DNA from: an uncultured Spirochaetales bacterium
GTDB taxonomy: Bacteria > Spirochaetota > Spirochaetia > SPDA01 > CAZSGZ01
NCBI GenBank assembly: GCA_964440465.1
Contig: CAYTSI010000005.1
Location: 151-64,150 of the forward strand
Direction: 5' to 3'
DNA: 64,000 nucleotides
Under the pieces are notes generated by a model that saw only the letters and a list, made by a program, of their open reading frames with translations, ran no database searches and had not been told where the DNA came from. Both the position numbers and the translations under genes were made by a program. Each line of letters starts with the position of its first letter. Positions within the stretch are counted from its first letter, which is position 1. This document shows positions 1 to 29,299 of this stretch, piece after piece.

Positions 1-736
1 CTTCGGTAATGCCGCCGTCGGTGATAAAGGCGTCGAAATCTTTTAAATCGGCGAAGTGGGTTGAATGCACCTTCCCGATTTTTGATGAATCGGCAACGAG
101 GATCGAAGATATACTCGAATCGATAATCGCCTTTTTTGTTTCCATCTCGTACTGGTTTGGGCAGGTAACGCCTAGATCTTTGCTGATTCCCCCGGCGGAG
201 ATAAAAGCTTTCGACGCCCTGGACCGCCGTATCAGGGAGATCCCCTCGGGGCTTTCAAACATCATCGTATTTTCATGAAGATATCCCCCGGCGAAGATGA
301 CGCGGCAGTTCTTCTTTTTCTGCAATTCCGCGAGGATGTTGAAAGAGTAGCAGATTACCGTCAGCGGCAGGTCCGCGGGAATGGAGCGCGCGATGTATTC
401 GGTAGTGGACCCGGCATCGATGCTGATAACGTCCTCCGCTTCGATGAGGGACGCGGCGTACCGGCCGATGGCTGCTTTTTCTTTCGTCTGTTTCGATCCC
501 GCCGTGATAAGGGAATAACTGATTTCACCCGATGGCGGTCCGCTGTTCTGGGCCGGATTTAAGACCGCGCCGCCGTGAAGGAGCTGGATGTAGTTTTGAT
601 CCTCGAGTTCCTGCAGGTCCCGCCGGATAGTCATGTGGGAAACGCCGAGCTTGTCGGCAAGTTCGTTTACCGACGCGGCATTATAAATCCGGAGAATTTT
701 CAGTATTTCATCTAACCGTTCCTTTTTATCGGCCAT
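1..736 (-). CDS. DeoR/GlpR-family transcriptional regulator (C-terminus cut by window edge)
   Basis: This reverse-strand ORF is not in the supplied track because it runs off the left edge. My translation from the ATG (complement of 734-736) is MADKKERLDEILKILRIYNAASVNELADKLGVSHMTIRRDLQELEDQNY..., which is a winged HTH. It is followed by DeoR-type sensor-domain motifs (ISIDAGSTT, FAGGY, FISAGGIS). The gene is divergent from the BMC operon. Confidence 0.85.
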   Translation of the reverse strand, partial: MADKKERLDEILKILRIYNAASVNELADKLGVSHMTIRRDLQELEDQNYIQLLHGGAVLNPAQNSGPPSGEISYSLITAGSKQTKEKAAIGRYAASLIEAEDVISIDAGSTTEYIARSIPADLPLTVICYSFNILAELQKKKNCRVIFAGGYLHENTMMFESPEGISLIRRSRASKAFISAGGISKDLGVTCPNQYEMETKKAIIDSSISSILVADSSKIGKVHSTHFADLKDFDAFITDGGITE

Positions 737-751
737 TTCCCCCGCCTTTAC

Positions 752-781
752 TTGACAAAAATGTATTATGGAATGTAAAAT
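752..781 (+). promoter_or_regulatory. Candidate sigma70-type promoter of the BMC operon (TTGACA, 18-nt spacer, TAAAAT)
   Basis: TTGACA lies at 752-757 and TAAAAT at 776-781, in the AT-rich DeoR/BMC divergent intergenic region. A direct repeat TATGTTAA at 793-800 and 815-822 (22-bp spacing) lies just downstream and could be an operator. Confidence 0.35.
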
Positions 782-860
782 AACTATCAATATATGTTAA
801 CAAAATACCATCGTTATGTTAAAATTATAACGTAAAACCAAGAAAAAGAAAAGGGAAGGG

Positions 861-1508
861 ATGAAAATTATGAATAATATTGATTTACGGACCTATATCT
901 ACTTAGATTCACTGCAGCCGCAGATGGCATCGTATATATCCACCATTTCCCGGGGATATTTTCCGGTGGCAGGTCAGGCGTGTATGGTCGTGGAGATCTC
1001 GCCGGGTATCGAGATCAACCGGCTGACGGACATCGCTTTAAAAGCGACGAACGTACGGCCTGGAATACAAATCGTCGAGCGGCTGTTCGGGCTCTTAGAG
1101 CTCCATTCCGACAGTCAGGCCGACGCGCGGCAGTCGGGGGAGTCGATCCTGAAAGAGCTCGACTTAACCGAAGCGGACAGGATGAAGCCGACGGTACTGA
1201 CCAGTCAGCTGATAAAAAACGTGGACGACCATCACGCTCAGCTTATCAATAAAGTGCGCTACGGCAACATGATCCTCCGGGGGGACACCCTCTATGTACT
1301 GGAGCTGCAGCCGGCGGGATATGCCTATTACGCCGCGAACGAGGCGGAAAAGGCCTCGCATATAAATATTATCAACGTGCAGGGCTACGGCAGTTACGGC
1401 CGTATTTATATAGCGGGACCGGAAGCGGAAGTTCTGGTCAGCCAGCAGATTGTTGAATCCCGCCTTTTGTCGTTAAGCGGCAGGGAAGCGGGCGGTAAAA
1501 AAGAATAA
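861..1508 (+). CDS. BMC shell protein, tandem-domain (BMC-T class)
   Basis: The 215-aa product has two BMC-like halves (ACMVVEISPGIEINRLTDIALKATNV... and TLYVLELQPAGYAYYAANEAEKASHINII...). It is the first gene of the shell operon. The start may be 861 or 870, because the RBS AGGGAAGGG abuts 861. Confidence 0.75.
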   Translation: MKIMNNIDLRTYIYLDSLQPQMASYISTISRGYFPVAGQACMVVEISPGIEINRLTDIALKATNVRPGIQIVERLFGLLELHSDSQADARQSGESILKELDLTEADRMKPTVLTSQLIKNVDDHHAQLINKVRYGNMILRGDTLYVLELQPAGYAYYAANEAEKASHINIINVQGYGSYGRIYIAGPEAEVLVSQQIVESRLLSLSGREAGGKKE

Positions 1509-1534
1509 CTAAAAGAATAACTAAAAGAATAACT
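1499..1534. repeat. Perfect tandem repeat, 12 bp x 3 (AAAAGAATAACT)
   Basis: Read directly from the sequence. The first unit contains the TAA stop of the BMC-T gene (1506-1508). The array fills the spacer before the BMC-H RBS. Confidence 0.95.
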
Positions 1535-1547
1535 AGAGGAGAAAAAA

Positions 1548-1856
1548 ATGGCAGAGGTATTTGAAAACGCATTGGGAATGATCGAAACAAAGAGCTTCGC
1601 CGCGATGGTTGAAGCATCGGACGCCATGGTCAAGGCGGCAAGGGTTGAACTGACGAACTGGGTCAACACAGGCGGCGGTTATGTAACATCCATCGTCCGG
1701 GGCGATGTCGCAGCGGTACGGGCGGCCTTAGACGCGGGCGGCCGGGCGGCTGAAAAAGTCGGTGAACTGATCAGCGTTCATATTATTCCCCGTCCCCATG
1801 ACAATGTGGACAGCGCGCTTCCGTTGGGACGGACACCGCAGGGCGGAAAGAAATAG
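1548..1856 (+). CDS. BMC shell protein, hexamer type (BMC-H, PduA/EutM-like)
   Basis: The 102-aa product reads ALGMIETKSFAAMVEASDAMVKAARVEL...GGGYVTSIVRGDVAAVRAALDAG...SVHIIPRPH, which is the canonical single BMC (PF00936-like) domain pattern. Confidence 0.9.
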   Translation: MAEVFENALGMIETKSFAAMVEASDAMVKAARVELTNWVNTGGGYVTSIVRGDVAAVRAALDAGGRAAEKVGELISVHIIPRPHDNVDSALPLGRTPQGGKK

Positions 1857-1860
1857 GTAG

Positions 1861-2160
1861 ATGGTACTCGCGAAAGTAGTCGGAACGGTTGTAGCTACCC
1901 GAAAAGAGCCGAAGATCGAAGGGATAAAATTCCTGCTGATAGAAAAACTGGACCCGGCAACCATGAAGGGAAAAAAAGACTTTCTCGTGGCCATGGACAG
2001 TGTCGGCGCCGGTCCCGGAGAGGTTGTCTTTTACGTGTCCGGAAGTTCGTCGAGAATGACCGCGACGACGGAGGGCAAACCGAGCGACGCGACCATAACG
2101 GCGATCGTGGACGTAATCGAAATGGACGGGAAGACCGTTTATCACAAGGACAGGCCTTAA
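1861..2160 (+). CDS. BMC vertex protein (BMC-P, EutN/CcmL family), paralog 1
   Basis: The 99-aa product starts [28 protein letters not shown]...[11 protein letters not shown], the typical EutN/CcmL N-terminal signature. Confidence 0.9.
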
Positions 2161-2163
2161 GCG

Positions 2164-2451
2164 ATGATTTTTGCACAAACTGTGGGAACGGTGGTGAGCA
2201 CCGCCCGAAGCGATGAGATAGAAGGGGCGAAATTCCTTTTAGTGCGGGAATGCAGCTACAAAGGAGAACTTTCTGACAATTACATGATCGCCCTCGACGC
2301 GGTGCAGACCGGCCCGGGAGAGATGGTCCTCATTGCCCAAGGCAGTTCCTGCCGTCAGACGGAAAACACCTTCCAGAAGCCGGTGGATGCCCTGATTGTG
2401 GGAATCGTCGATTCCATAGACGAGGGAGGGGACCTTGTCTTTAGAAAGTAA
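2164..2451 (+). CDS. BMC vertex protein (BMC-P), paralog 2
   Basis: The 95-aa product reads MIFAQTVGTVVSTARSDEIEGAKFLLV...DAVQTGPGEMVLI. Confidence 0.9.
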   Translation: MIFAQTVGTVVSTARSDEIEGAKFLLVRECSYKGELSDNYMIALDAVQTGPGEMVLIAQGSSCRQTENTFQKPVDALIVGIVDSIDEGGDLVFRK

Positions 2452-3790
2452 GACCGCTGTCCGTCTCGCGGAGGCGGTCCGGGAGGCGGGTATCGTCGGC
2501 GCCGGCGGCGCCGGCTTCCCCACCCATAAAAAGCTCGGCGGGACCTGCCGCACGGTAATTGCCAACGGAGCCGAGTGTGAACCCCTTCTGCAGAGCGACA
2601 AATACATTATGGAAACGGAGGCGGAGAAAATCGCCGCCGCCCTCGAGCTTGCGGTGAATGAACTGCGGGCGGAAGAGGGGATTATCGCGGTAAAGGAGAA
2701 GAACAGCCGGGCTGTGGAGCGGCTCGAAGCAGCGGCGGCATCAAGGGTTGCTCTGTCCCTCTATCACCTTGAAAACTTCTATCCAGCGGGGGACGAGCAT
2801 GTGTTAGTCCATGAGATAACCGGAAAGGTAGTGCCCGAGGGGGGTATCCCGATTGCCGTGGGTGTTGTTGTCCTGAATGTGGAAACGCTGTTGAACATCT
2901 GCAACGCGGTATATGAATCGGCCCCGGTCACCCTGCGCACCGTTACCTGTACGGGAGAGGTGAAGACGCCGAAGGTGCTGCGGGTTCCGGTCGGTACGGC
3001 CATGCGGGACGTAATTCATGAGTGCGGGGGTGCTCTGGTGGAAGAACCCGCTATAATCATCGGCGGACCGATGATGGGAAAGGTCACCACCGATGTAGAT
3101 ACGCCGGTTGATAAACTGACCGGCGGAATTATCGTTTTGCCGAGGGACCACGATTGCATTCAACGGAAAACACGGCCGTTAGAAGTGCAGGTGCGGCTCT
3201 CGCGGAGCGCCTGCTGTCAGTGCGTACTGTGCAGCGAGCTCTGTCCCCGGGAGATGCTCGGGCATAATCTGTATCCGCACTTAATTATGCGGCAGATCAA
3301 TTACGGTCTTGATTTGCCGGAAGAAGCGCTGGCAGCGGCGGCGCTCTGCTGTGAATGCGGAGTGTGCGAGGTGTTCGCGTGTCCTATGGGGCTTTCCCCC
3401 TCCTTTATCAACGGAATTATCAAACAGCGGTTTGCCGAGGGGGGGTACAAGCCGGAGTTCCCCGACAGGGAGCCTAAGCCGCATGAGATGCGGGAATACC
3501 GCAAGGTGCCGGCACAGCGGATAATAGGCCGTTTGCGGCTTAACCGCTACGACGAGCCGATGTATGACCGGGGAGGCGCCGTTACACCGGAACGGGTTGA
3601 ATTGCCGCTGCGGCAGCACATCGGGGCGCCGGCGGTGCCGGTGGTTTCCCCCGGGGCAGCGGTGAAACGGGGAGACTTAATCGGGGAAATTCCCGAAGGG
3701 AGCTTAGGGGCACGGGTGCACGCCTCGGTTACGGGGACCGTTACACTGGTGGAGGAAAGCCGGATACTTATTACGGCATCAGGGGCATAA
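2435..3790 (+). CDS. PduS/RnfC-like NAD(H)-binding iron-sulfur flavoprotein
   Basis: The 451-aa product has a GAGGAGFPTHKKL nucleotide/flavin-binding motif. It carries two ferredoxin-type clusters (CCQCVLCSELCP and CCECGVCEVFACP) and an RnfC-type barrel-like C-terminal segment. The track start is a TTG overlapping the upstream gene by 17 nt, so the exact start is uncertain. Confidence 0.8.
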   Translation: MSLESKTAVRLAEAVREAGIVGAGGAGFPTHKKLGGTCRTVIANGAECEPLLQSDKYIMETEAEKIAAALELAVNELRAEEGIIAVKEKNSRAVERLEAAAASRVALSLYHLENFYPAGDEHVLVHEITGKVVPEGGIPIAVGVVVLNVETLLNICNAVYESAPVTLRTVTCTGEVKTPKVLRVPVGTAMRDVIHECGGALVEEPAIIIGGPMMGKVTTDVDTPVDKLTGGIIVLPRDHDCIQRKTRPLEVQVRLSRSACCQCVLCSELCPREMLGHNLYPHLIMRQINYGLDLPEEALAAAALCCECGVCEVFACPMGLSPSFINGIIKQRFAEGGYKPEFPDREPKPHEMREYRKVPAQRIIGRLRLNRYDEPMYDRGGAVTPERVELPLRQHIGAPAVPVVSPGAAVKRGDLIGEIPEGSLGARVHASVTGTVTLVEESRILITASGA

Positions 3791-3793
3791 CAT

Positions 3794-4345
3794 ATGGAAT
3801 ACAGCGTAATCGGAGTACTTGAATTTTCGGCAACGGCGGCGGGCATTCTGGCCTTAGACAGCATGGTGAAGGCCGCGCCGGTGAAAATTATCGACGCGAA
3901 AACGATTTGTCCCGGCAAGTTCTATATTATCGTTACCGGAGACGTTGCCTCGGTTGATGCCGCGCTGACGGCGGGCAAAAAAGCGGGCGAGGGGTACTTG
4001 ATCGACGAGCTCTTTATTACCAACCTGCAGGAGCAGGTAATTCCGGCCATTTTAGGAACGGTGGAAACGACGAAGTGGGAATCTTTAGGCGTTATCGAAT
4101 CGTTTTCCATTGTGTCGAGTATCGTCGCGGGGGATTTGGCGGCGAAAGCGGCGGCGGTGGAGCTGCCTGAAATCAGGCTTGCTACGGGAATGGCGGGTAA
4201 ATCGTATGTAAAGATGATCGGGACGGTGCATGAGGTGGAGGTCTCCATGAAGGCGGCGAAAGAGTATGTGGGAAAGCAGGGCCTGTTATGTAAGGACGTT
4301 ATTATTCCCCACGCGCACCCGGAAATGAAGCCGTTTATTTTATAG
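3794..4345 (+). CDS. BMC shell protein, tandem-domain PduT-like (BMC-T) with candidate pore cysteine
   Basis: The 183-aa product has two BMC domains (VIGVLEFSATAAGILALDSMVKAA... and SLGVIESFSIVSSIVAGDLAAKAA...). Its length and the Cys in TICPGKF resemble PduT, whose trimer pore binds a [4Fe-4S] cluster. Confidence 0.75.
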   Translation: MEYSVIGVLEFSATAAGILALDSMVKAAPVKIIDAKTICPGKFYIIVTGDVASVDAALTAGKKAGEGYLIDELFITNLQEQVIPAILGTVETTKWESLGVIESFSIVSSIVAGDLAAKAAAVELPEIRLATGMAGKSYVKMIGTVHEVEVSMKAAKEYVGKQGLLCKDVIIPHAHPEMKPFIL

Positions 4346-4369
4346 GCACGGCGGAGGTAGGATACAGAT

Positions 4370-5815
4370 ATGCAGATAGATGAAAAAACGATACGGACGG
4401 TTGTCGAAGAGGTGTTAAAAGAGGTGAGCGCGGCGGCGGTGTCGTCCGCCTCGCCGCCCCGGACCCCTTCCCCGGCAGCCTCCTCTACATATCAGGGCTC
4501 ATTCAGTACCATGGACGCAGCCGTGCGCGCGGCGCATCAGGCGCATCTGGATTTAATGAACACGACGCTGGAAATACGGAGAAAAATGATCGATGCCATG
4601 CGGGAGACCATATGGTCCAATCTTTTTGTCCTGTCAAAAAAAGCGGTGGAGGAGACCGGCTTCGGCCGCACCGACGACAAGGTGAAGAAAAACCTTCTCG
4701 CGGCGAAGATGACACCCGGTGTGGAGGATTTAACGCCGACATCGTATACGGATGACCACGGACTTACCCTGACCGAACTCGCACCCTACGGCGTTATCGG
4801 GGCGATTGCTCCGAGTACGAACCCGACGGAGACGATTATCAGCAATGCCATTGGAATGGTAGCAGGCGGAAACACGGCGGTGTTTGGTCCCCACCCGGCC
4901 GCGAAGGAAGTTTCGAAATATACCATCTGCTTGTTAAACACGGCCATTCAGAAAGCCGGCGGACCGGCAAATGTTCTTACAACGGTGGACGAACCGACCA
5001 TCGAGGCCGCCCAGACGATGATGGACCATCCTCTCGTTTCGCTCTTAGTCGTGACCGGCGGCCCGGGAGTAGTAAAAGAGGCGATGAAACGGGCGAAAAA
5101 GGTCATTGCCGCGGGACCGGGGAACCCGCCGGTGGTGGTGGATGAAACCGCGGACATCGTGAAGGCCGGGAAAGATATCGTCGCGGGCGCGGGTTTGGAC
5201 AACAACATCATCTGTATTGACGAGAAAGAAGTCCTGGCGGTGGACTCTATTGCCGATCAGCTGAAGGCGGAAATGAAGAAAAACGGCGCCTTTGAACTGG
5301 ACCGGCAGCAGGCGGAGGCCCTGACGAAAATCGTCATTTCCGATCCCGGACGGCCGGGGCATGAAGGAATGGCGAATAAAAAATACGTGGGAAAAAACGC
5401 GTCCGTATTGGCGGACCTCATCGGCCTGAAGGTCCCCGAAGATACGCGCATCCTCATTGCCGAAGTCGACCGCGACCATCCGATGGTATGGACGGAACAG
5501 CTGATGCCCTTTATTCCGCTGGTGCGGATGAAGAGCGCCGATGAGGCGATCGATTTTGCCGTAGAATGCGAACACGGGTTTCGGCACACGGCAAGCATGC
5601 ATTCGAAAAACATCGAGCGGCTCTCAAGGATGGCGAAAGTCATGAACTGTTCCCTCTTTGTAAAAAACGGTTCGAATTTTAACGGCATGGCCTTCGGCGG
5701 CGCGGGCTACACCTCCTTTACCATTGCCAGTCCCACCGGCGACGGCTTTACCCGGGCGAGGACCTTTACCCGGGAACGGCGGTGTTCGCTCATTGATTAT
5801 TTTCGGATTGTGTAG
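4370..5815 (+). CDS. CoA-acylating aldehyde dehydrogenase (PduP/EutE-like) with N-terminal extension
   Basis: The 481-aa product belongs to the aldehyde dehydrogenase superfamily. It has the catalytic-Cys context GAGLDNNIICIDEKEV typical of EutE/PduP. An N-terminal amphipathic helix (KTIRTVVEEVLKEV) is followed by an Ala/Ser/Pro linker. Confidence 0.9.
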   Translation: MQIDEKTIRTVVEEVLKEVSAAAVSSASPPRTPSPAASSTYQGSFSTMDAAVRAAHQAHLDLMNTTLEIRRKMIDAMRETIWSNLFVLSKKAVEETGFGRTDDKVKKNLLAAKMTPGVEDLTPTSYTDDHGLTLTELAPYGVIGAIAPSTNPTETIISNAIGMVAGGNTAVFGPHPAAKEVSKYTICLLNTAIQKAGGPANVLTTVDEPTIEAAQTMMDHPLVSLLVVTGGPGVVKEAMKRAKKVIAAGPGNPPVVVDETADIVKAGKDIVAGAGLDNNIICIDEKEVLAVDSIADQLKAEMKKNGAFELDRQQAEALTKIVISDPGRPGHEGMANKKYVGKNASVLADLIGLKVPEDTRILIAEVDRDHPMVWTEQLMPFIPLVRMKSADEAIDFAVECEHGFRHTASMHSKNIERLSRMAKVMNCSLFVKNGSNFNGMAFGGAGYTSFTIASPTGDGFTRARTFTRERRCSLIDYFRIV

Positions 5816-5840
5816 GTTAAGGAAAATAGGAAGTGATGGA

Positions 5841-6113
5841 ATGAAATTAGGGAAAGTAATCGGAACGGTGGTGAGTACACAAAAGGTGGAGTCCTTCGAG
5901 GGGGTAAAGCTTCTTTTAGTACAGCCGTTAGATGAAAATTACGACGAGAAAGGCGGACCCTTAGCGGCGTGTGATACCGTTCAGGCGGGAGTTGGAGACA
6001 TTGTCCTTTATGAAGGCGGCCGGGAAGCCGCCCTGACGCTGGAAAACTGGTACAATCCGTCGGACGCGGCGGTAATGGCTATTGTCGACAGTACAAACCT
6101 GGAGGCAACCTAA
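5841..6113 (+). CDS. BMC vertex protein (BMC-P), paralog 3
   Basis: The product reads MKLGKVIGTVVSTQKVESFEGVKLLLVQP...DTVQAGVGDIVL. I trimmed the track ORF (5724) to the ATG at 5841, which is preceded by AGGAAG. The longer N-terminus overlaps the aldehyde dehydrogenase and looks non-coding. Confidence 0.85.
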   Translation: MKLGKVIGTVVSTQKVESFEGVKLLLVQPLDENYDEKGGPLAACDTVQAGVGDIVLYEGGREAALTLENWYNPSDAAVMAIVDSTNLEAT

Positions 6114-6388
6114 TGCTTGTGGCTAAAGTAATCGGAACGGTTGTCGCCACGCGGAAGCATCCCGTTTTACAGGGGTATAAGCTGTTAATTGTGCAGCCGA
6201 AGGGGCCTGACGGAACGGATGCCGGCGGGATCGAGATTGCCCTCGATACGGTACAGGCAGGGACCGGCGAAACGGTGCTGCTGTTGACGGAGGGCAACTC
6301 TTCGAGGATGATTATCGGCGACGACATGGCCCCGGTACGTGCGGTGGTGGTCGGCATTATCGATGAGGTACAGTACGATGCAGTATAA
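6113..6388 (+). CDS. BMC vertex protein (BMC-P), paralog 4
   Basis: The 91-aa product reads [29 protein letters not shown]...DTVQAGTGETVLL. Confidence 0.9.
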   Translation: MLVAKVIGTVVATRKHPVLQGYKLLIVQPKGPDGTDAGGIEIALDTVQAGTGETVLLLTEGNSSRMIIGDDMAPVRAVVVGIIDEVQYDAV

Positions 6389-6929
6389 AAGTGATTCATC
6401 CATTGTACAAAATATCGTTTCCACGCTTCACACGGCCGCGGACCGGCCGCTTCCGGTGGAGAATACCGCGAACCAGGAAGACAAGGTCCTTCGGGTTGCC
6501 CTCGGGGCGGACCACGGCGGCTTCGAGGCGAAGGAGGCCCTGCGGGAGTATCTGAAGTCCTTAGGTTACCGTGTTACCGACGTCGGGACCGACAGTACCG
6601 AAAGCGTCGACTATCCCGATTTCGCGGTAAAGGTGGCGAAAAAAGTGGCCTCCGGGGAATGCGAGCGGGGAATTATGATCGACGGCGCGGGAATCGGATC
6701 GACGATGGTATGCAACAAGGTGCGGGGCATCCGCGCGGCGCTGTGCTACGATGTGAAAACAATCAGCAACAGCAGGGTGCACAATAACGCGAACGTGCTG
6801 TGCTTAGGCGGCCCCCTGCACGGCAGAGAGGAAATTTTTGAAATGGCAAAGCTGTGGCTAACCACGCGATTCGAGGGCGGCAGACACTGGCCGCGGATTA
6901 ATAAAATGATGGCAGTTGAACGAGGATAA
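6378..6929 (+). CDS. rpiB: Ribose-5-phosphate isomerase B / sugar-phosphate isomerase (RpiB/LacAB family) with N-terminal extension
   Basis: The core reads RVALGADHGGFEAKEALREYLKSLGY...GIMIDGAGIGSTMVCNKVRGIRAALC...NANVLCLGG. The start was trimmed to ATG 6378 (in frame with the track ORF at 6339). About 35 aa (SSIVQNIVSTLHTAA plus a linker) precede the catalytic core. Confidence 0.85.
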   Translation: MQYKSDSSIVQNIVSTLHTAADRPLPVENTANQEDKVLRVALGADHGGFEAKEALREYLKSLGYRVTDVGTDSTESVDYPDFAVKVAKKVASGECERGIMIDGAGIGSTMVCNKVRGIRAALCYDVKTISNSRVHNNANVLCLGGPLHGREEIFEMAKLWLTTRFEGGRHWPRINKMMAVERG

Positions 6930-6941
6930 GAGGATAGACAG

Positions 6942-7820
6942 ATGGAGCAGAAAGATTTAGTAGAAAAATTGACGAAAGAGGTTATCGCGCGGCTTACGCA
7001 GGAAGGCAGCGGCGTTACAGGCGGCGCGCCTGCAGGCGGCAGCAGGACAACGGCCTCCGGCGGCGTCGGCGGCAATATGGGCGGCGGCCGGTCATCGGGC
7101 GCCGTACAGGAAGGCGGCTCGGCTCAGGCGGCCGGTTCCGGGGAGCTCCGTCCCTCCGACCTCAATAAATATATCGACCACACTCTGCTCAAACCGGAGG
7201 CGACGAAAGAGCAGATCGACAAGCTCTGCGATGAGGCGAAGGAATACTCTTTTTATTCGGTATGCGTCAACTCGAGCTGGGTGGAATACTGCGCGAAAAA
7301 ACTCCGCGGAAGCGGAGTCAAAATCAGTGCCGTAGTGGGGTTCCCCTTAGGCGCCATGGAAGGCCGTGCGAAGGGTTATGAAACAAGACACGTCGTCGAG
7401 GCGGGTGCCGATGAAATAGATATGGTGATGAACGTGGGCGCCCTGAAATCGGGAGACACGAAAAAGGTTGAAGAAGACATCCGCTGGGTCCGCCGGTCCA
7501 CCCGGCAGAAGACGGTTGTAAAAGTAATTATCGAAGCGGCCCTGCTGACCGATGACGAGAAGGTGCTCGCCTGTCAGATTTCGAAAAACGCCGGCGCCGA
7601 TTTCGTAAAAACGTCCACCGGGTTTGCAAAAGGCGGCGCCACCGCCGAAGATGTCGCCCTGATGCGGCGCACCGTCGGTCCGAAGACGGGCGTTAAAGCT
7701 GCCGGGGGGATCCGCTCCTTCGAAGATGCTGTGAAGATGATCAATGCCGGCGCGACTCGCTTAGGCACCAGTTCCAGCGTAGAGATTGTTACGGGGCAAA
7801 AGAGCACGTCGGCGTACTAA
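6942..7820 (+). CDS. deoC: Deoxyribose-phosphate aldolase (DERA) with ~68-aa N-terminal extension
   Basis: The core reads LNKYIDHTLLKPEAT...YSVCVN...VVGFPLG...DMVMNVG...VKVIIEAALL...ADFVKTSTGF...GVKAAGGIR, the class I aldolase DeoC pattern. The N-terminus is an amphipathic helix (DLVEKLTKEVIARL) followed by a long Gly/Ser/Ala linker. Confidence 0.9.
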   Translation: MEQKDLVEKLTKEVIARLTQEGSGVTGGAPAGGSRTTASGGVGGNMGGGRSSGAVQEGGSAQAAGSGELRPSDLNKYIDHTLLKPEATKEQIDKLCDEAKEYSFYSVCVNSSWVEYCAKKLRGSGVKISAVVGFPLGAMEGRAKGYETRHVVEAGADEIDMVMNVGALKSGDTKKVEEDIRWVRRSTRQKTVVKVIIEAALLTDDEKVLACQISKNAGADFVKTSTGFAKGGATAEDVALMRRTVGPKTGVKAAGGIRSFEDAVKMINAGATRLGTSSSVEIVTGQKSTSAY

Positions 7821-7907
7821 AGACCGGACACCAGCCTCCCAAAAAGGTCCGGCGAAACGCGAAACGCTAATATTGACAACCAGTATTCAAATCGCTATCG
7901 TTATCAT

Positions 7908-8276
7908 ATGGGGACGTTTCATATCAGCTGTAAAGTAGAAAACCATATTGACCGCGGGAAAAATACTACAGTTAAAAACCTATTAGTAGACACCGGAAGC
8001 GGATTTACCTGGCTCCCCGCCTCGGAACTGGAGAACATCGATGTTGCCCGTGAGAAAAAAGATCTGCCTTTTATTATGGCAAACGGTCAAAGGATTACCA
8101 GGGACGCCGGCTTCGCGATCATCCGTGTAGAAGACCATTTCACCATTGATGAGGTTGTATTCGCGGAGGAAGGGGACTTGCTGCTGTTAGGCGCCCGCAC
8201 TTTAGAAGGACTGAACCTCCGGGTCGATTCGGTCCGGAAGAAACTCGTGGCCGCCGGACCGCTCCCGGCCGCGTAG
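7908..8276 (+). CDS. Retropepsin-like (clan AA) aspartic protease domain protein
   Basis: The 122-aa product has the motif LLVDTGSGFTWLP (a D-T-G-S catalytic-type motif) and a C-terminal LLLLGARTLEGL segment typical of bacterial retropepsin-like proteins. Confidence 0.6.
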   Translation: MGTFHISCKVENHIDRGKNTTVKNLLVDTGSGFTWLPASELENIDVAREKKDLPFIMANGQRITRDAGFAIIRVEDHFTIDEVVFAEEGDLLLLGARTLEGLNLRVDSVRKKLVAAGPLPAA

Positions 8277-8325
8277 AATCTCCCTGTTGCCCCGCCGAGT
8301 CCTCTTTGGTATGATGGGACGGGAG

Positions 8326-8517
8326 ATGGACAATACTCCAAAGAAAGCTCCGAACTGCCTGAAATGCCGTTTTTTTTCGGTTTCCTGGGACAGACGTTAC
8401 CCCCGGGCATGTTCCGTATTTGGTATTAAATCGAAGCAGCTTCCCAGCATGGAGGTATACCGGGCCACCGGGCGGCATTGTCCAATGTTTCAAAAATCCG
8501 AAAAAATAAAGGACTAA
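8326..8517 (+). CDS. Small Cys-rich hypothetical protein
   Basis: The product reads MDNTPKKAPNCLKCRFFSVSWDRRYPRACSVFGIKSKQLPSMEVYRATGRHCPMF, giving a CxxC...C...C pattern. The start was chosen at ATG 8326, after GGGACGGGAG. No family was recognised. Confidence 0.35.
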   Translation: MDNTPKKAPNCLKCRFFSVSWDRRYPRACSVFGIKSKQLPSMEVYRATGRHCPMFQKSEKIKD

Positions 8518-8533
8518 ACTGAAGGAATACATC

Positions 8534-9682
8534 ATGAATAGAGAACGAAAAAAAAGGCGGACACTAAAAAAGAGCGGGCCGATGATGTCCCGCCTGTACG
8601 GAGACACCGGCGTTAACGTTTCCGCGTTAGGTTTCGGCGGGATGCGGTTTGAGAAACCGGACGATATCGAGCATTCCGCCGAGACGGTGTTCCACGCCTT
8701 CGAGCGGGGGATTACCTATTTCGATACGGCGCCGGGGTATTTCGACGGTAAGTCGGAGGAGGCCGTCGGTACGGCGGTAAACGAGATGAAGAAAACCGGC
8801 AGGCCTTTTTATATATCCACGAAATCAAACAAGGCGGACGGTGCCGTGGTCCGGAAAGAGCTGGAAGAAAGCCTGAAGCGGCTGAATCTCGACTGTATCG
8901 ATTTTTATAACTGCTGGTACGTACTGACATTAGAGGATTGGGAAAAACGGAAAAACGGCGGGGCAGTGGAAGCAATTCTAAAGGCGCGGGACGAGGGGCT
9001 TGTCCGCTTTCCGGTATTTTCCACCCACCTTCCGGGAGACGCGGTACGTACGGTCATTGAAGAGGGATATTTCCGCGGCGTTACCCTCGGCTATTCGGCC
9101 ATCAATTTTCCCTACCGGGAAGAGGGGATACGGGCAGCCGGAGAGAACAATCTCGGTGTTGTCGTTATGAACCCCTTAGGGGGAGGAACAATTGTAAACA
9201 ATGCCGATGCCTTTCAATTTATCAAACGGGACAGCAAACAGACCGTTTTAGAGGCGGCCCTTCATTTTCTCTGGGCCCACGATGAAATTACGGTCGCGTT
9301 AGTAGGATGCAGGAACAAGTCCGATGTGGACGATGCCGCTGCCGCCGCGGCATCGTACGTACCCTATTCGGACGAAGATATCTCTAAAATAAAGAAGAAC
9401 ATTACCCGGGACTTCAACCAGCTGTGTACAAGCTGTACCTACTGTGATGTTTGTCCCGAAGACATCCCTGTCTGGAAGTTTGTGGAAACTGCAAACCATG
9501 TTATTTTAGGCTCTTCCGCGTCACTGTCCGGACGACTGAAATACTACTGGGGGGCTGATCCGACGGCCATGGAGCGGTGTATCCGGTGCGGGCAGTGTGA
9601 AAGTGCCTGCACCCAGCATATACCGATTATGGAACGGTTTGAGATGCTGAAAACAGCATTGACGGAGGAACCTACAAAGTAA
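8534..9682 (+). CDS. Aldo/keto reductase with C-terminal 4Fe-4S ferredoxin-like tail
   Basis: The AKR barrel motifs are LGFGGMRF, ITYFDTAPGY and GVVVMNPLGGG. The C-terminal cysteine clusters are CTSCTYCDVCP and CIRCGQCESAC. An alternative start exists at 8582. Confidence 0.8.
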   Translation: MNRERKKRRTLKKSGPMMSRLYGDTGVNVSALGFGGMRFEKPDDIEHSAETVFHAFERGITYFDTAPGYFDGKSEEAVGTAVNEMKKTGRPFYISTKSNKADGAVVRKELEESLKRLNLDCIDFYNCWYVLTLEDWEKRKNGGAVEAILKARDEGLVRFPVFSTHLPGDAVRTVIEEGYFRGVTLGYSAINFPYREEGIRAAGENNLGVVVMNPLGGGTIVNNADAFQFIKRDSKQTVLEAALHFLWAHDEITVALVGCRNKSDVDDAAAAAASYVPYSDEDISKIKKNITRDFNQLCTSCTYCDVCPEDIPVWKFVETANHVILGSSASLSGRLKYYWGADPTAMERCIRCGQCESACTQHIPIMERFEMLKTALTEEPTK

Positions 9683-9813
9683 CAGCGCCGAAAAATGGCT
9701 GTAGCTTTGTCTGAGTACAGATGATGTCCCCGCGTGCAGCCGAAAAGAGGATATATCCCGGAAGATTTGATAAATCACTTGCAGATTAGCCGAAATTGTA
9801 TCAAAATAGAGGT

Positions 9814-10953
9814 ATGGAAGAAAGAAAAGTATTAATAAAAGATTTCGAGAAAAAAATCCAATCCAATGAGGAAAAAATCAGGCTGCTGCTGATACAAACG
9901 GGTGAATACCTCTTTGCAAAGGCGAAAAAAGATACCCGGTCCGCGGCGCAGGATGATTATGATGCCGCGAAACGGCAGCTGGATTCCCTGGAACAATACA
10001 AGGACAGCAAAAAACGGATTCTTGCCATTCTCGAACGGCTTTCTGAGATTAAAGAAGAGATGACCAATTCCGGCGGGCAGATTGAGATCATAGAACGGGC
10101 GAATCTGCCGGTATATGAAGTCATAGGAGAAAAGGCCTACGAACACCTGCGTCATGATCCGTCCCGGTATAATCAGTACAGCGATGTATTTGTGGATGTC
10201 AATAATCAGATAGAGGACATTGAAAATATAGAAAATGACATTGAAGCAATACACGCGCAGAAAAAGCAGCGTAAATTCTTTGAAAAAATTGCGGACACCG
10301 GTCAGGTAACCTATTTAAAGGGGATCAAGATGGTCCGGGCAAAAACAATGCCCCGGCTGTACCGGGAGGCCGGGCAAAAGCTCACGGAAACCAATTTTTT
10401 GGAAACAACAGGAAACGAAGAAATCGTAAGCGCCGCCGGACCGTACCTGCAGAACAAAGAAAAATTGAAGGAACTGCATACCCGGATGGAGCATCTCTCG
10501 GAAGAGGAAAAGAGTTTAGAGTCGGAACTGATCAATTTAGGAGTGGACAAACGGGCAGACCGGCGAACGGACGAACTCGACCGGAATATTGCCGCTGCCC
10601 AGGAGAAATACACGGAAAAGCTTCTCGCGATTGCCCGGAAGGTGCGGGAAAACACCCCGGAGGCAATTGCCTCACTGTCGGACTATAAAGAATTTCTCAA
10701 AGAAATCGCGAAATGCGAAAAGCAGAATGATCAATACCGGGAAAATATTACAAAACTCAACGCGGCAATTGAGGCGGATAATTGTGCCCGCCAGCTTGAA
10801 AGAATGAATGAAAGTATCGGCGACCGCGAGCGGCGTATTCGGGAGTACGAACAGGAAATAGAAGACCTGCAAAAACGGATAGCGGAAACGGAGAAAGAGA
10901 AAAAGCGCTACGAGGAAATCAGGGGTCCTAAGGAACTGACACTTCAGTCGTAA
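9814..10953 (+). CDS. Coiled-coil protein, unknown function
   Basis: The ~380-aa product is highly charged (E/K/R/Q-rich) with heptad-like composition throughout. The start was trimmed to ATG 9814, after an AGAGG RBS. The gene has its own terminator downstream. Confidence 0.55.
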   Translation: MEERKVLIKDFEKKIQSNEEKIRLLLIQTGEYLFAKAKKDTRSAAQDDYDAAKRQLDSLEQYKDSKKRILAILERLSEIKEEMTNSGGQIEIIERANLPVYEVIGEKAYEHLRHDPSRYNQYSDVFVDVNNQIEDIENIENDIEAIHAQKKQRKFFEKIADTGQVTYLKGIKMVRAKTMPRLYREAGQKLTETNFLETTGNEEIVSAAGPYLQNKEKLKELHTRMEHLSEEEKSLESELINLGVDKRADRRTDELDRNIAAAQEKYTEKLLAIARKVRENTPEAIASLSDYKEFLKEIAKCEKQNDQYRENITKLNAAIEADNCARQLERMNESIGDRERRIREYEQEIEDLQKRIAETEKEKKRYEEIRGPKELTLQS

Positions 10954-10990
10954 TGTCTGCCCGCGGCATCCCATAACAACCTTCCACTGA

Positions 10991-11029
10991 CAGCCCGTTC
11001 GGATAACTCCGGCCGGGCTGCTCTTTTTT
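10991..11029 (+). terminator. Rho-independent terminator candidate
   Basis: The stem CAGCCCG (10991-10997) pairs with CGGGCTG (11014-11020) and is followed by CTCTTTTTTG. Confidence 0.6.
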
Positions 11030-11046
11030 GTAAGCTGTGATAGGAT

Positions 11047-12174
11047 ATGTTCCGTATGAACCGGTTTACGATGTGCGCGGCAGCCGACTTTCACCTCGGC
11101 ATGAGGTTCTCTTCCTACCCTTCTGTGCAAAAGGAGCTGATACGGGCGAGGTTTTCCGCGCTCCGGCGGGTGGTGGACCGGGCAAATGCCGAACAATGCG
11201 CTCTTCTTGTGATAGCGGGAGATTTGTTTGATCGTATCAACATCCCGGTAAAAGAAGCGGAGGAAGTGATAGAAATTCTCGGCGGATTTCAGGGTGATTG
11301 CATTGCGGTTTTACCGGGTAACCACGATTATTTCAGCGGTGCAAAGAGCGGTGTCTGGAAAACCGTTACGGAGAATGGACCGGATAACCTCCTGCTGCTG
11401 TCGGAGAAGAAAAAATACTACCTCAATGATTTCCATTTGCCGGTTGTTTTATATGCCGGCCCATGCAGTTCTCAGCACGGACGTGAAAACGCGGTATCGT
11501 GGATCGGCCCGGCGGACCGAAAGGACAGAGAATTGTTTCATATAGGGGTAGCCCACGGCAGCATTGAGGGGATTTCCCCCGACGTAACCAAGCAGTATTT
11601 CCCGATGAACAGGAAGCAGCTGGAGTCCGCCGGTCTCGATTTGTGGATTATCGGGCACACCCATATACCCTTCCCGGAGCGGGAGGAAACGGTATCGCCT
11701 TTTATTATACCCGGCACACCCGAACCGGACGGTTTTGATTCCGGCGGGGACGGAGCTGCTTGGATTATTTCGGTAAATGATAACAAGGCGGTACACAAGA
11801 AGCGGTTTACTGCCGGCTCATACCGTTTTACGCGGCAGATAAAGGAAATACACTCCGCCGGGGACATTGAGGAGGCGGTCCGTGAAATGAGCGGAACGGC
11901 CGGTCCTTCCGTTCTCCTGCAGCTGAAACTGCGGGGCACTCTTGTGAAGGGCGATTTTCCCCTTTTAGGTCCGGCAATGGAAGAATTGGCACAGCGGTTT
12001 TTTTATACGGATATTGATACGGAAAGCGTGAAAACAAAGCTGACCCCCGGAGAAATCGGCAATGAATTCCGGGAAGGGACCTTTCCCTATATTCTTCTTT
12101 CCCGTCTCTCCGAGTACGGCGATACCGAGGCGCTCGAGCGGGCTTACAGGATCCTAGAGGAGATGAGGAAATGA
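11047..12174 (+). CDS. Metallophosphoesterase, SbcD/Mre11-like nuclease subunit (YhaO-like)
   Basis: The calcineurin-like phosphoesterase motifs are AADFHLG, IAGDLFD, LPGNHD and GHTH. The gene overlaps the downstream ATPase gene by 4 nt. Confidence 0.75.
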   Translation: MFRMNRFTMCAAADFHLGMRFSSYPSVQKELIRARFSALRRVVDRANAEQCALLVIAGDLFDRINIPVKEAEEVIEILGGFQGDCIAVLPGNHDYFSGAKSGVWKTVTENGPDNLLLLSEKKKYYLNDFHLPVVLYAGPCSSQHGRENAVSWIGPADRKDRELFHIGVAHGSIEGISPDVTKQYFPMNRKQLESAGLDLWIIGHTHIPFPEREETVSPFIIPGTPEPDGFDSGGDGAAWIISVNDNKAVHKKRFTAGSYRFTRQIKEIHSAGDIEEAVREMSGTAGPSVLLQLKLRGTLVKGDFPLLGPAMEELAQRFFYTDIDTESVKTKLTPGEIGNEFREGTFPYILLSRLSEYGDTEALERAYRILEEMRK

Positions 12175-14651
12175 TCATCCGGGACCTGCACATTCATACC
12201 TTCGGGGACTTTCAGGATGTCCGGCTGCAGTTTGCAGACGGGTGTAATATTGTCCTTGGTGAAAATGAAGCGGGTAAGTCAACGGTTTTCAATGTAATCG
12301 ATCATCTGCTGTTTACTCCCGTCAAGCTGACGAAGCGTGAAATGGAAAAAAGCTTGAATCGATGGTTTCCCGTTGGAGGCGGGGATACGTTGAGCGCGGA
12401 ATTATCTGCCGAACTCGGGGACAGAGCTGTTCGGTACTTCAAGTGCTGGGGCGGGAATCCGGAAGGAACAATTCGATTTTCACCGGGAGGGACCTATTCG
12501 GGCGATGATGCCCTCGCTGCGGAAACGGAAAAATTGTGGGGATACTCTCCGGAGACGGTGCGGCAGGTTTGCCTGCTGCGGCAGAGTACCCTCGCGGATA
12601 CGCTGCCTTCCTACCAGAATTCGAAGGAGGTATTGCAGTCTCTTACCGACATCCTGCAAAATTCTTTAATAGAAGGCGGCGGTATTTCCACCTCCGGTTT
12701 TATTGAAACTCTCCGGGACCGGTACAGCTTGTTTTTTTCAAGATGGGACAGAGACCGGAACTATCCGGAAAAAAACAGAGGGATTGAAAATCCATGGTCG
12801 GTAAACGTGGGTACGGTTTTGAAATGGTGGTATGAAATGAAGCGGGCCGAGTTAGAGGTCCGGCGGGTAGAGCAGCTGGAAGACTCAATATGTTTACTGC
12901 AGAGCAGCCAAAAAGAAAAAAAGAAGGAAACGGCAGCTCTCGAGTCGTTTCTTTCTGCCTTTGAGACAGTCTACAACACTGCCGGAGACAGAAAAAGCCT
13001 GGAATTGGAACTGCGGGAAATTATCGGTACGATGGAGCGGATAAAGAAAGACAGTCAATCCTGGGGACGGGGGAGGGATGGTCTTGAACAGGCGCTCCGG
13101 GAGCGGAAAGAAGGGAACGAAGAACTTGGAAAGCTCCGCGGGCGGATCGAAAGCAGGGATGAAGTAACGGCGAAACGGAAACGGTTCGAAAAATATCGTC
13201 GGCTGCTGGAGGTGAAAACAAAACTCGACGCCCTGGAGGCAAAGCTCAGAGAACAGCCGGCAATACCGGAAAAGGATTTGCAGGCACTCCGTGAATCAAG
13301 GTTGGCAATTCGGGAAAGTGAGGTGAAACTGCAGTCCGGAACACTCTTTGCACAGCTGACCGCGAAGAAAAATATCAGTTTTTCCTATACTCCCGGATTG
13401 GGCACTGAAAAGCGGCGTGACCTTATGGCAGGGAATTCGCTTGAAATAACGGCGGAAGGGAAAATTCGGCTGAGCCACGAAGACTGGGAGCTGGATGTTT
13501 ATTCGGGAAACGAAGATTACGAAACCGTCAAAAAGGAGCTGGAGGCAGGCAAAAAAGAGTTTAACGCTCTCTGTGAGAAGTACGGTGTTGTTTCCGTCGA
13601 GGAAGGAGAAGCACAGCGGAAGGTTTATACTGATCTGGAAGGGGAAACGGCACGGGCGCGGAAACAATTTTCCGAGGAACGCGGAGAGGACTCTTTTGAA
13701 GCCCTGAAGAAGGAAGTCGAAAGTTTTGGGGCCCTTCCTGAGGAAACCGACAGTACCGAGCTGGGAAGAGAATACGGTTCTCTCAATGAACGGCTTGCCG
13801 CGCTTGAAAAAACAATACAGGAACATCGGGAACGGTTGTCGTATTTGGAAGAGACATATGGGACGGAGGAAAAGCTTCTGGACATGCTCGCGGACCTCCG
13901 CGGCCGGCAGCGGGACTTGGAGAAACAAGTGGCTGCTCTTCCGGAAATTCCTGACCCCTTCGAAACGGCGGAAGAATTTCTTGAGGCATACAGGGAAAAA
14001 CAAAGAAAAAGGGAGACGCTCCGTCAGGAAATATTTGAGTTAGATAAGGCGGCCGCCCTTGCGGTAAAAGACCTCCCGGACATCTCCCTCGAGGAGCTCG
14101 AAGCGGACGCTGAAGCCGCGCGGCGGCGTTTTCAATCCGCGCTTTCGGAGGGGGAGACAATCGGCCGGATTCTCGAGACAGCGCTGCGGATCCAAAAAGA
14201 AATTCAGGAGAACCCCTATACCGCCTTTATGGAGGCGGCGGAAGCAAACCTTAAAAAAATGACCGGGCAGAGGCTGCAGTATAAAAGCAGATCAGGCGGG
14301 GGGGACGGTCAGGCAGCGGCCCCTTTTCACGGTGATGTTAGAAACAGCCGGGGAGAAATTCTGGCGTACGGACAGCTTTCAGGCGGAACGAAAGACGCGG
14401 TTTCTCTAGCCGTCCGGCTGGCAATGGCGGAGTATTATCTGAAAAATAAAGCAGGGTTTCTCCTCTTTGATGATCCCCTAGTGGAAATGGACCCGCGGCG
14501 CCAGAAGGCCGCCGCCGAACTGCTTTCCGAAACCGCCCGGCGCTACCAGTCGATAATCTTTACCTGTCATCCCCACATGCGCGATTTATTCCCGAATGCC
14601 AATGTAATTGAGCTGCATCGGGACGGGGAACGGAGGCGTGTTAAATTTTAA
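12171..14651 (+). CDS. SbcC/Rad50-like AAA ATPase with long central coiled coil (YhaN-like)
   Basis: Walker A (GENEAGKST) is at the N-terminus. The central ~500 aa are coiled-coil. The C-terminus carries an ABC signature (LSGGTKD) and Walker B (LLFDDPLVEMD). Confidence 0.8.
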   Translation: MIIRDLHIHTFGDFQDVRLQFADGCNIVLGENEAGKSTVFNVIDHLLFTPVKLTKREMEKSLNRWFPVGGGDTLSAELSAELGDRAVRYFKCWGGNPEGTIRFSPGGTYSGDDALAAETEKLWGYSPETVRQVCLLRQSTLADTLPSYQNSKEVLQSLTDILQNSLIEGGGISTSGFIETLRDRYSLFFSRWDRDRNYPEKNRGIENPWSVNVGTVLKWWYEMKRAELEVRRVEQLEDSICLLQSSQKEKKKETAALESFLSAFETVYNTAGDRKSLELELREIIGTMERIKKDSQSWGRGRDGLEQALRERKEGNEELGKLRGRIESRDEVTAKRKRFEKYRRLLEVKTKLDALEAKLREQPAIPEKDLQALRESRLAIRESEVKLQSGTLFAQLTAKKNISFSYTPGLGTEKRRDLMAGNSLEITAEGKIRLSHEDWELDVYSGNEDYETVKKELEAGKKEFNALCEKYGVVSVEEGEAQRKVYTDLEGETARARKQFSEERGEDSFEALKKEVESFGALPEETDSTELGREYGSLNERLAALEKTIQEHRERLSYLEETYGTEEKLLDMLADLRGRQRDLEKQVAALPEIPDPFETAEEFLEAYREKQRKRETLRQEIFELDKAAALAVKDLPDISLEELEADAEAARRRFQSALSEGETIGRILETALRIQKEIQENPYTAFMEAAEANLKKMTGQRLQYKSRSGGGDGQAAAPFHGDVRNSRGEILAYGQLSGGTKDAVSLAVRLAMAEYYLKNKAGFLLFDDPLVEMDPRRQKAAAELLSETARRYQSIIFTCHPHMRDLFPNANVIELHRDGERRRVKF

Positions 14652-14667
14652 GGCACCCGCGAAAGAA

Positions 14668-15645: not shown

Positions 15646-15836
15646 CGTCTCTTGTCGAGGGTAATTATATTCACAGGTAGGAGAATACTCTAATTGGGAG
15701 TCTACTTCTATGGGCGACCTCAAGTTTTCCCTTACTGGTCTGGAGATGTAAAGCGTTTAGGAAAATCAGCTACTTACTCTTAATGCTCCGTCCCTCATCA
15801 ACAGCACCGGTTATCGCTCACCGGTATTCGGCATTA

Positions 15837-16343: not shown

Positions 16344-16448
16344 TCTTTACCCCCTCGAATAGTCGGTATTTTTTTTTGCCTATACTTAATAAGAAGGGGT
16401 AAATAGGATTGCTGATTTTAAAATTCGGTCATTTTTTTTATTTTTTTT

Positions 16449-16458
16449 GCTCTGTCCC
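16449..16458 (-). repeat. Intergenic copy of the over-represented 10-mer GGGACAGAGC
   Basis: GCTCTGTCCC is read on the + strand, 106 bp upstream of the RAYT start codon. Confidence 0.95.
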
Positions 16459-16464
16459 CATCTT

Positions 16465-17748: not shown

Positions 17749-17749
17749 C

Positions 17750-29285: not shown

Positions 29286-29299
29286 CAAAAGGACGGAAC

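Follow-up and report, generated by a model that had tools for sequence, protein, structure and literature searches.

The SPU class of bacterial microcompartment (BMC) loci was named in 2014, comprised more than 280 loci in 2021 and was characterised at the level of its enzymes in 2024; it ranks among the most widespread types of microcompartment and is a fair research target. A DeoC-type aldolase of the PF01791 family encoded among shell genes is a feature unique to SPU loci, which the Kerfeld-lab catalogue divides into seven subtypes (Sutter et al. 2021). The subtype SPU2 is described there (Supplementary Data 2) as having an aldehyde dehydrogenase (AldDh), a PF01791 protein (deoxyribose-5-phosphate aldolase, DERA) and a PF02502 protein (RpiB-like, RPI) as its only enzymes, a phosphotransacylase (PTAC) or an alcohol dehydrogenase being found in few loci. 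Its shell consists of one or two BMC-H proteins, a triplet of BMC-P proteins plus one extra copy and a CcmP-like BMC-T(dp), while the BMC-T(s) keeps its pore cysteine in 80% of the loci and is accompanied by PduS in about one quarter of them. AldDh and some of the DERA and RPI proteins carry N-terminal encapsulation peptides, and the hosts are mainly Spirochaetes and Bacteroidetes, with several candidate phyla. We analysed a locus of this kind at the start of a stretch of 64,000 nucleotides (the window; contig CAYTSI010000005.1, positions 151 to 64,150) from an uncultured Spirochaetales bacterium and compared it with these descriptions.

Judged by its genes, the locus is an SPU2-subtype metabolosome operon of the minority form that carries the PduS/PduT module for NAD+ recycling, made up of MNdh (metabolosome NADH dehydrogenase) and BMC-T^SE, and none of the sequence features tested deviates from the SPU2 description. 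Genes were called from a list of open reading frames (ORFs) and from Pfam and NCBIfam profile searches of their translations, and homologues were sought with phmmer against the PDB. Eleven genes of the + strand form one block from 861 to 7820, in which the largest gap or overlap is 39 nt. The intergenic gaps are 39, 4, 3, 3, 24, 25 and 12 nt, the overlaps are 17, 1 and 11 nt, and a GGAGG-like site precedes most of the genes. The start of the third BMC-P gene was corrected to 5841 and that of the RpiB-like gene to 6378, rather than the GTG at 6339. The PF01791 aldolase gene lies 554 nt downstream of the last BMC-P gene, with only the RPI-like gene between them. The scans of the window covered ORFs of at least 180 aa, with the 1926-aa ORF at 47040-52820 left out and the 223-aa ORF at 19204-19875 searched against NCBIfam only; the SPU2 enzymes AldDh, DERA and RPI were present, and PTAC, TPI and alcohol dehydrogenase were absent from the scanned ORFs and from the 3 kb to the left of the window. 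The BMC-T(s) with its pore cysteine and the PduS that may accompany it were both found.

The first-pass annotation of this DNA had described a co-directional block with spacing of 40 nt or less, containing one BMC-H, two BMC-T and four BMC-P genes together with AldDh, a PduS-like flavoprotein and DeoC, divergent from a DeoR regulator, and had placed it in the SPU class. All of this agreed with our results: the shell count with the PF00936, PF03319 and PDB matches, the enzymes with PF00171/NF011927, the four-domain order of the flavoprotein and TIGR00126, and the regulator with the HTH_DeoR and DeoRC domains at 2-736 on the - strand. The class assignment could be narrowed to SPU2, with gene content and shell set matching the published description item by item and the host probably fitting it as well. 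On these matches the shell-gene pattern cannot be a product of chance, because seven shell genes with E-values from 1e-24 to 1e-71 are packed among matching enzymes. The best explanation of the locus, which we consider probable, is an SPU2 metabolosome that breaks down deoxyribose-5-phosphate with PduS/PduT recycling of NAD+. The features of the locus are listed in Table 1.

Table 1. Predicted features of the SPU2-type locus; positions are those of the 64,000-nt window (RBS, ribosome-binding site).
Feature	Position	Strand	Evidence
DeoR-family regulator, divergent, cut by the left edge of the window	1..736 (reading frame 2-736)	-	PF08220, 57.8 bits; PF00455, 163 bits
Putative sigma-70-like promoter, TTGACA-18 nt-TAAAAT	752..781	+	11/12 consensus positions
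Leader, 79 nt, near-invariant between strains	782..860	+	strain alignment; holds an RBS-like site
BMC-T(dp), CcmP-like double-stacking gated tandem-domain trimer	861..1508 (true start probably 870)	+	PDB matches; PF27545
BMC-H hexamer, main shell tile	1548..1856	+	PF00936, 98.7 bits, E=1.9e-28
BMC-P pentamer, paralogue 1	1861..2160	+	PF03319, 89.9 bits
BMC-P pentamer, paralogue 2	2164..2451	+	PF03319, 86.4 bits
PduS homologue = MNdh, FMN + two [4Fe-4S]	2435..3790	+	four Pfam domains
PduT-like BMC-T(s) = BMC-T^SE, pore motif CPGK (Cys39)	3794..4345	+	two PF00936 domains, 126 bits
AldDh, acylating aldehyde dehydrogenase	4370..5815	+	PF00171; NF011927, 645.7 bits
BMC-P pentamer, paralogue 3	5841..6113	+	PF03319, 91.5 bits
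BMC-P pentamer, paralogue 4	6113..6388	+	PF03319, 93 bits
RpiB-like protein, Asp replacing the catalytic Cys	6378..6929	+	PF02502, 178 bits
DERA, signature enzyme, N-terminal extension of ~70 residues	6942..7820	+	TIGR00126

The aldolase scored 282.5 bits against the deoC equivalog profile TIGR00126 (cutoff 117) and 52.8 bits against PF01791, and its catalytic domain aligned to the DERAs of the PDB from residue 73, with E-values down to 1e-79. Residues D160, K194 and K223 correspond to D102, K167 and K201 of the E. coli enzyme, and all three were invariant in 18 homologues; the motifs used for this mapping are unambiguous. The catalytic domain is about 60% identical to the housekeeping DeoC of Streptococcus. 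An AlphaFold2 model (mean pLDDT 83) gave residues 3-22 as a helix (pLDDT ~80), residues 23-66 as a disordered Gly/Ser linker and residues 71-283 as a TIM barrel (pLDDT >90). The sequence of the N-terminal helix was conserved across the 18 homologues, so that the helix extension of SPU DERAs was also found here, and a helix followed by a linker, in an encapsulation layout, has been reported for all SPU DERAs (Dwyer et al. 2024, PMC11585597). As modelled, the N-terminus of this DERA is a targeting tail with the layout of an encapsulation peptide. The first-pass annotation had stated that neither a substrate nor a phenotype of the class had been demonstrated. The statement on the substrate is superseded at the level of the enzyme, the SPU6 DERA having been shown in 2024 to cleave deoxyribose-5-phosphate in vitro (PMC11585597), while that on the phenotype stands: no in vivo substrate or phenotype of any SPU organelle was found in the literature searched.

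In the PDB, AldDh came closest to 5jfl, an aldehyde dehydrogenase from a BMC (E=3.7e-130), and the catalytic Cys residues of the two align (DNNIICIDEKE versus DNNLPCVAEKE). Its N-terminus starts with an amphipathic helix, in which the best 14-mer has a hydrophobic moment of 0.66, and continues with a Ser/Pro-rich linker, as expected of an encapsulation peptide. This usual layout of N-terminal amphipathic helix and linker is common to all three cargo proteins, AldDh, the RpiB-like protein and DERA. The MNdh protein contains, in this order, PF01512 (Complex1_51K), PF10531 (SLBB), PF13534 (4Fe-4S dicluster) and PF13375 (RnfC barrel); it scored 249.5 bits against TIGR01945 (rnfC), and its translation contains the motif GAGGAGFPT as well as CCQCVLCSELCP and CCECGVCEVFACP, which are its two clusters of Cys. 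The same four domains in the same order are published for MNdh, whose gene adjoins that of BMC-T^SE in 97% of cases (PMC11626177), and on this basis we rejected the idea, suggested by the C-terminal position of RnfC_N, that the protein is domain-permuted. Here the BMC-T(s) gene starts 3 nt past the end of the MNdh gene, so that both the domain order and the gene adjacency of an MNdh/BMC-T^SE module were found. Comparison of the BMC-T(s) with the PDB gave E-values of 6e-39 for 3nwg and of 1e-31 to 1e-34 for PduT (3pac and 3n79), and its KTICPGKF segment aligned exactly to the cluster-binding Cys of PduT. The MNdh/BMC-T^SE pair, which was shown in vitro to oxidise NADH, is described as doing so within the shell and exporting the electrons through the [4Fe-4S] cluster of the pore (PMC11626177, PNAS 2024). 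By analogy, this pair would explain how NAD+ is recycled here without an alcohol dehydrogenase.

Under the reading that we favour, a sugar phosphate would relieve repression by DeoR and the promoter at 752-781 would fire. Deoxyribose-5-phosphate would pass into the shell, where DERA would cleave it to glyceraldehyde-3-phosphate, which would leave for glycolysis, and acetaldehyde, which would be kept inside. AldDh would then convert acetaldehyde, CoA and NAD+ to acetyl-CoA and NADH. Because there is no alcohol dehydrogenase, MNdh would be the enzyme that regenerates NAD+ in the shell. From its FMN, the electrons would travel over its two [4Fe-4S] clusters, reach a further [4Fe-4S] cluster that the CPGK cysteines of the BMC-T^SE trimer bind, and finally be taken up by a carrier outside the shell, for instance ferredoxin or flavodoxin. 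Because there is no phosphotransacylase either, acetyl-CoA and CoA would have to cross the shell in exchange. The most plausible route is the wide, gated pore that BMC-T(dp) would provide, a passage that has been put forward in the literature as a hypothesis. The RpiB-like protein, which keeps its sugar-phosphate-binding residues and has lost the Cys/Thr pair, would most likely act as a DERA-binding scaffold that aids packing of the core.

The same set of enzymes could be imagined to run in the reductive direction, with AldDh reducing acetyl-CoA to acetaldehyde as a sink for NADH, DERA condensing acetaldehyde with glyceraldehyde-3-phosphate, and MNdh working in reverse, fed by reduced ferredoxin from outside and supplying NADH to the lumen; the deoxyribose-5-phosphate formed would trap the aldehyde or store carbon. 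According to the account of it in PMC6281690, Nobu et al. (2016) proposed a reductive use for Atribacteria loci that are catalogued under SPU2. The reactions of DERA and of acylating AldDh are both reversible, as is established enzymology, electrons can flow either way through RnfC-type modules, and the host looks strictly anaerobic and fermentative, with a corrinoid metabolism. However, every characterised metabolosome oxidises its aldehyde, MNdh/BMC-T^SE oxidises NADH in vitro (PMC11626177), and the DeoR-type control and the resemblance of the DERA to catabolic DeoC (~60% identity) point to catabolism. Deoxyribose-5-phosphate would also be left without an encoded onward step, since the RPI lacks its catalytic residues. 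We therefore regard the reductive direction as unlikely, and as less likely than the breakdown of deoxyribose-5-phosphate.

The loss of these catalytic residues was seen by comparison of the RpiB-like protein with the E. coli enzyme: C66 is replaced by D102 and T68 by A104, while H99 is retained. The protein has an N-terminal extension of 37 residues with an SSIVQNIVSTL helix, and its PDB homologues align only from residue 38. Among 33 distinct DERA-adjacent RpiB-like proteins, taken from loci L005-L084 of many phyla and sharing 40-74% identity, the C66 position was an Asp in all 33 and Thr68 was an Ala in 30, whereas D9, H10, H99, R133 and R137 were invariant. The locus thus has the PF02502 protein adjoining DERA, with its catalytic Cys changed to Asp, that marks SPU loci. 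The conservation in these 33 copies exceeds that expected of a decayed pseudoenzyme. Dwyer et al. (2024, PMC11585597) reported the change of Cys66 to Asp in all SPU RPIs, found that the SPU6 RPI has negligible isomerase activity and forms a stable complex of about 1:1 with DERA, and assigned no isomerase step in the SPU scheme. Because the catalytic Cys is replaced by Asp here, as in every DERA-adjacent copy that we checked, the RpiB-like protein is probably a DERA-binding scaffold and not an isomerase. The RpiB listed in the block by the first-pass annotation is thus present as a PF02502 protein; given this substitution and the near inactivity of the SPU6 RPI, it should not be taken for a functional pentose-phosphate isomerase.

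The conserved Asp/Ala site nevertheless leaves room for a second alternative, in which a different or additional sugar phosphate is used and the modified RpiB fold is an active isomerase that feeds the aldolase or takes its product. The presence of Asp in every copy and the five invariant residues suggest that the site is under selection rather than decaying; moreover, the RpiB of M. tuberculosis uses a carboxylate base and the specificity of the RpiB fold is broad (PMC11585597). On the other side stand the negligible ribose-5-phosphate isomerase activity of the SPU6 RPI and its ~1:1 complex with DERA, the loss of the proton-shuttle Thr68, the view of Dwyer et al. that there is no isomerase role in the SPU scheme (PMC11585597), and the identity of the DERA as a clear deoC equivalog. 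This alternative is possible but unsupported, and we give it little credence. There is likewise only a slim chance that the Asp/Ala site of the DERA-bound protein works at all, either by isomerising some sugar phosphate so far unrecognised or as a sugar-phosphate-sensing partner that controls DERA; if it did, the chemistry of the SPU organelle would extend past the cleavage of deoxyribose-5-phosphate.

The shell that would enclose the three cargo proteins of the favoured deoxyribose-5-phosphate metabolosome was examined by the same profile searches. The first-pass annotation had made its reading depend on the shell calls passing profile thresholds. The BMC-H, the four BMC-P and the BMC-T(s) proteins passed them, whereas the first shell gene did not (16.4 bits versus a PF00936 threshold of 24.5). 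The possibility that this gene does not encode a BMC protein was ruled out by the PDB search and by a precomputed PF27545 match of the protein, which identify it as a permuted BMC-T(dp). With phmmer, it matched CcmP (4ht5) with E=1e-71 over 208 residues, HO-5816 with E=6e-66 and CsoS1D with E=1e-51, and its E73/R74 align with the Glu-Arg gating pair of CcmP. By these E-values (1e-71 versus 1e-51) it is CcmP-like, as in SPU2. Its gene has two in-frame ATGs, at 861 and 870, 9 nt apart. The start at 870 is more likely, because strain L085, which is 99.8% identical, has lost the ATG at 861 by mutation and has the gene called at 212 aa, and because the RBS-like site GGAAGGG lies only 2 nt before 861. 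The interface motifs KAAR and PRPH could be read in the BMC-H translation. The four BMC-P paralogues form two adjacent pairs and are mutually 39-43% identical, giving the BMC-P complement of an SPU locus.

The region between the deoR gene and the operon is 124 nt long, and the promoter at 752-781 is the inferred promoter of the operon. Strains L002 and L004, with DeoR proteins of about 85% identity, keep both hexamers and differ in the spacer. An ATGTTAA motif is repeated, as an inverted or direct repeat, at 794-825 in the leader and may be the operator of DeoR. The regulator is 262 aa long in the matching contigs L001 and L085, and three of the related SPU2 loci of Spirochaetota (L006, L008 and L010) have a DeoR homologue next to them. 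No intrinsic-terminator-like site was found between the DERA gene and the next gene.

Preservation of the operon bears on a third alternative, that the operon was acquired as a cassette which is silent or seldom used and from which the organism builds no organelles. BMC loci spread horizontally, and an IS200/IS605-type Y1 transposase gene (PF01797, from the annotation of a matching contig) lies at ~15837-16343 on the - strand, 8 kb downstream of the operon. In addition, microcompartments could not be seen in Atribacter laminatus RT761, a cultured carrier of SPU2, in the conditions of that study (PMC7736352). However, all 11 genes are intact and tightly spaced, with RBS-like sites, the motifs for catalysis and cofactors have been preserved, the alignable contigs share 99.8% identity over the locus, and the promoter hexamers are kept in the more distant strains while the spacer drifts. 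A silent cassette is therefore very unlikely.

The observation on RT761 also counts against the breakdown of deoxyribose-5-phosphate in an organelle, and several other points do so as well. The biochemistry of the class was done on SPU6 proteins of a Chloroflexi bacterium and not on SPU2 (PMC11585597). The best NCBIfam match of the regulator, the E. coli DeoR profile NF007961, was obtained with 166 bits, under its cutoff of 244 bits. The locus is not linked to genes for a deoxyribokinase, a phosphopentomutase, a nucleoside phosphorylase or a nucleoside transporter, and conservation between relatives does not extend to the flanks. The passage of acetyl-CoA through BMC-T(dp) and the outside electron acceptor are hypotheses of the literature, and expression, assembly of the shell and direction of flux are predictions.

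We then considered the DNA on both sides of the operon. The absence of pduL/Pta, ackA and adh from the operon, which the first-pass annotation had pointed out, was confirmed and is normal for SPU2 rather than a gap: none of pduL, ackA and adh was found among the scanned ORFs of the window or in about 3 kb to its left. The same was true of deoB, deoK and nucleoside phosphorylases among the scanned ORFs of the window. The only sugar kinase among these ORFs, a PfkB protein at 17795-18769, is paired with a mannitol-1-phosphate dehydrogenase-like gene and was judged unrelated. The same locus was recovered on several metagenome contigs by exact-protein look-ups. One of them, L085, from a microbial mat metagenome (PRJEB25599), is 99.76% identical in nucleotides to positions 1-17820 of the window and extends it by 2,959 bp to the left (position 2960 of L085 is position 1 of the window); it was on this contig that the DNA left of the window, to which the first-pass annotation had directed attention for pduL, ackA and adh, was searched. 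Immediately downstream of deoR and in the same orientation, positions 3-2739 of L085 carry genes for EtfB, for an EtfA whose N-terminal domain is Cys-rich and ferredoxin-like, and for a FAD-linked oxidase that is truncated; their layout resembles a lactate dehydrogenase/Etf cluster. No tblastn match to these genes was found in the other 87 SPU loci fetched or in the window, and for this reason they are probably incidental neighbours. A weaker idea than that of a working Asp/Ala site, and one specific to this organism, is that the products of these genes may accept the electrons that leave through BMC-T^SE. All-against-all BLAST of the flanks of seven Spirochaetota loci revealed no common accessory genes beyond the core genes and DeoR.

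On the other side, a 122-aa ORF at 7908-8276 (+) has sub-threshold matches to retropepsin-like aspartyl proteases (PF13975, 25.5 bits) and is preceded by a promoter-like TTGACA-17-TATCGT at 7873-7901. It is followed by a gene for an aldo/keto reductase fused to a C-terminal 4Fe-4S dicluster (8534-9682, +; PF00248 and Fer4), which is present in all strains of the organism. The 122-aa ORF, the aldo-keto reductase and a 385-aa coiled-coil protein were rejected as parts of the organelle, as they are not conserved beside other SPU2 loci. A pair of genes for an SbcD-like metallophosphoesterase and an SbcC/Rad50-like ATPase, overlapping by 4 nt, lies at 11047-14651 (+).

A scan of species-representative genomes by DERA alignment showed that the eight best loci all belong to metagenome-assembled genomes of Spirochaetota, and the DERA was 56-60% identical to those of the nearest of these loci that were matched over their full length. 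The gene order [H] Tdp [H] P P [Ts] AldDh P P RPI DERA is common to L006, L008, L010 and L012, from which PduS is absent; PduS was found only in the window and in L005. The window contains no rRNA gene. Its FtsH is about 60% identical to that of named Spirochaetales/Spirochaetia relatives and 57-58% identical to that of Anaerolineales, and the host is probably, though not certainly, a deep-branching spirochaete. Corrinoid-linked genes at 23558-31271 and 60230-61654 encode an AcsV/RamA-like activase, a CobW-like GTPase, a homocysteine S-methyltransferase, CobT, an MttB-family methyltransferase and an MtaA/CmuA-like methyltransferase fused to thioredoxin-like domains, and NrdD/NrdG/NrdR are encoded at 42910-46964. 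Together, these genes point to a strict anaerobe with a metabolism of methylated amines. A full-length cobalamin riboswitch (RF00174, 50.7 bits, E=1e-9) was also detected at 52892-53065 on the - strand. It points into the 3' end of a convergent gene, the 1926-aa ORF at 47040-52820, which is alpha-2-macroglobulin-like with a GCMEQ thioester motif; no credible ORF was seen downstream of the riboswitch on its own strand, and it may be an orphan or antisense-RNA riboswitch.

Comparison of the locus with SPU2 (Sutter et al. 2021; Dwyer, Sutter and Kerfeld 2024) showed the same enzymes, shell set and N-terminal encapsulation peptides, the optional PduS and no PTAC or alcohol dehydrogenase. Nothing of substance differed, and the locus is among the roughly one quarter with PduS. 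It is a textbook SPU2 operon of an uncultured organism and adds little to the question of what SPU organelles do in cells. Its value is that of a clean, complete and compact example of ~7.8 kb, with a single regulator and with MNdh/BMC-T^SE in the absence of PTAC and alcohol dehydrogenase, which could be used for heterologous expression of shell and cargo, or to study CoA recycling without phosphotransacylase in metabolosomes.

The only SPU with biochemical data, the SPU6 of Chloroflexi bacterium GWB2_54_36, shares with the locus a DERA with an N-terminal extension of ~70 residues and the Asp/Lys/Lys residues, an RPI with Cys66 changed to Asp and an N-terminal encapsulation peptide, adjacent RPI and DERA genes, a BMC-T(dp) and several BMC-P proteins. 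It differs in lacking PduS/MNdh, in the C-terminal position of the AldDh encapsulation peptide, in having a GntR/UTRA regulator in place of DeoR and in a BMC-T(dp) of another clade. The MNdh/BMC-T^SE module (PNAS 2024) has the same domain order, gene adjacency and CP(G/S)K pore motif as the locus and also occurs with AldDh in the absence of an alcohol dehydrogenase; it was characterised with Clostridium botulinum proteins, whereas in the locus it is predicted, with no conserved candidate acceptor gene nearby. The Pdu and Eut systems of Salmonella resemble the locus in that a signature enzyme produces an aldehyde, AldDh converts it to an acyl-CoA, the cofactors are recycled internally and the shell traps the aldehyde. 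However, their signature enzyme depends on B12 while that of the locus is a cofactor-free class I aldolase, and the locus lacks PduL/EutD and PduQ/EutG. Its shell includes a gated BMC-T(dp) of the carboxysome type and four paralogous pentamers.

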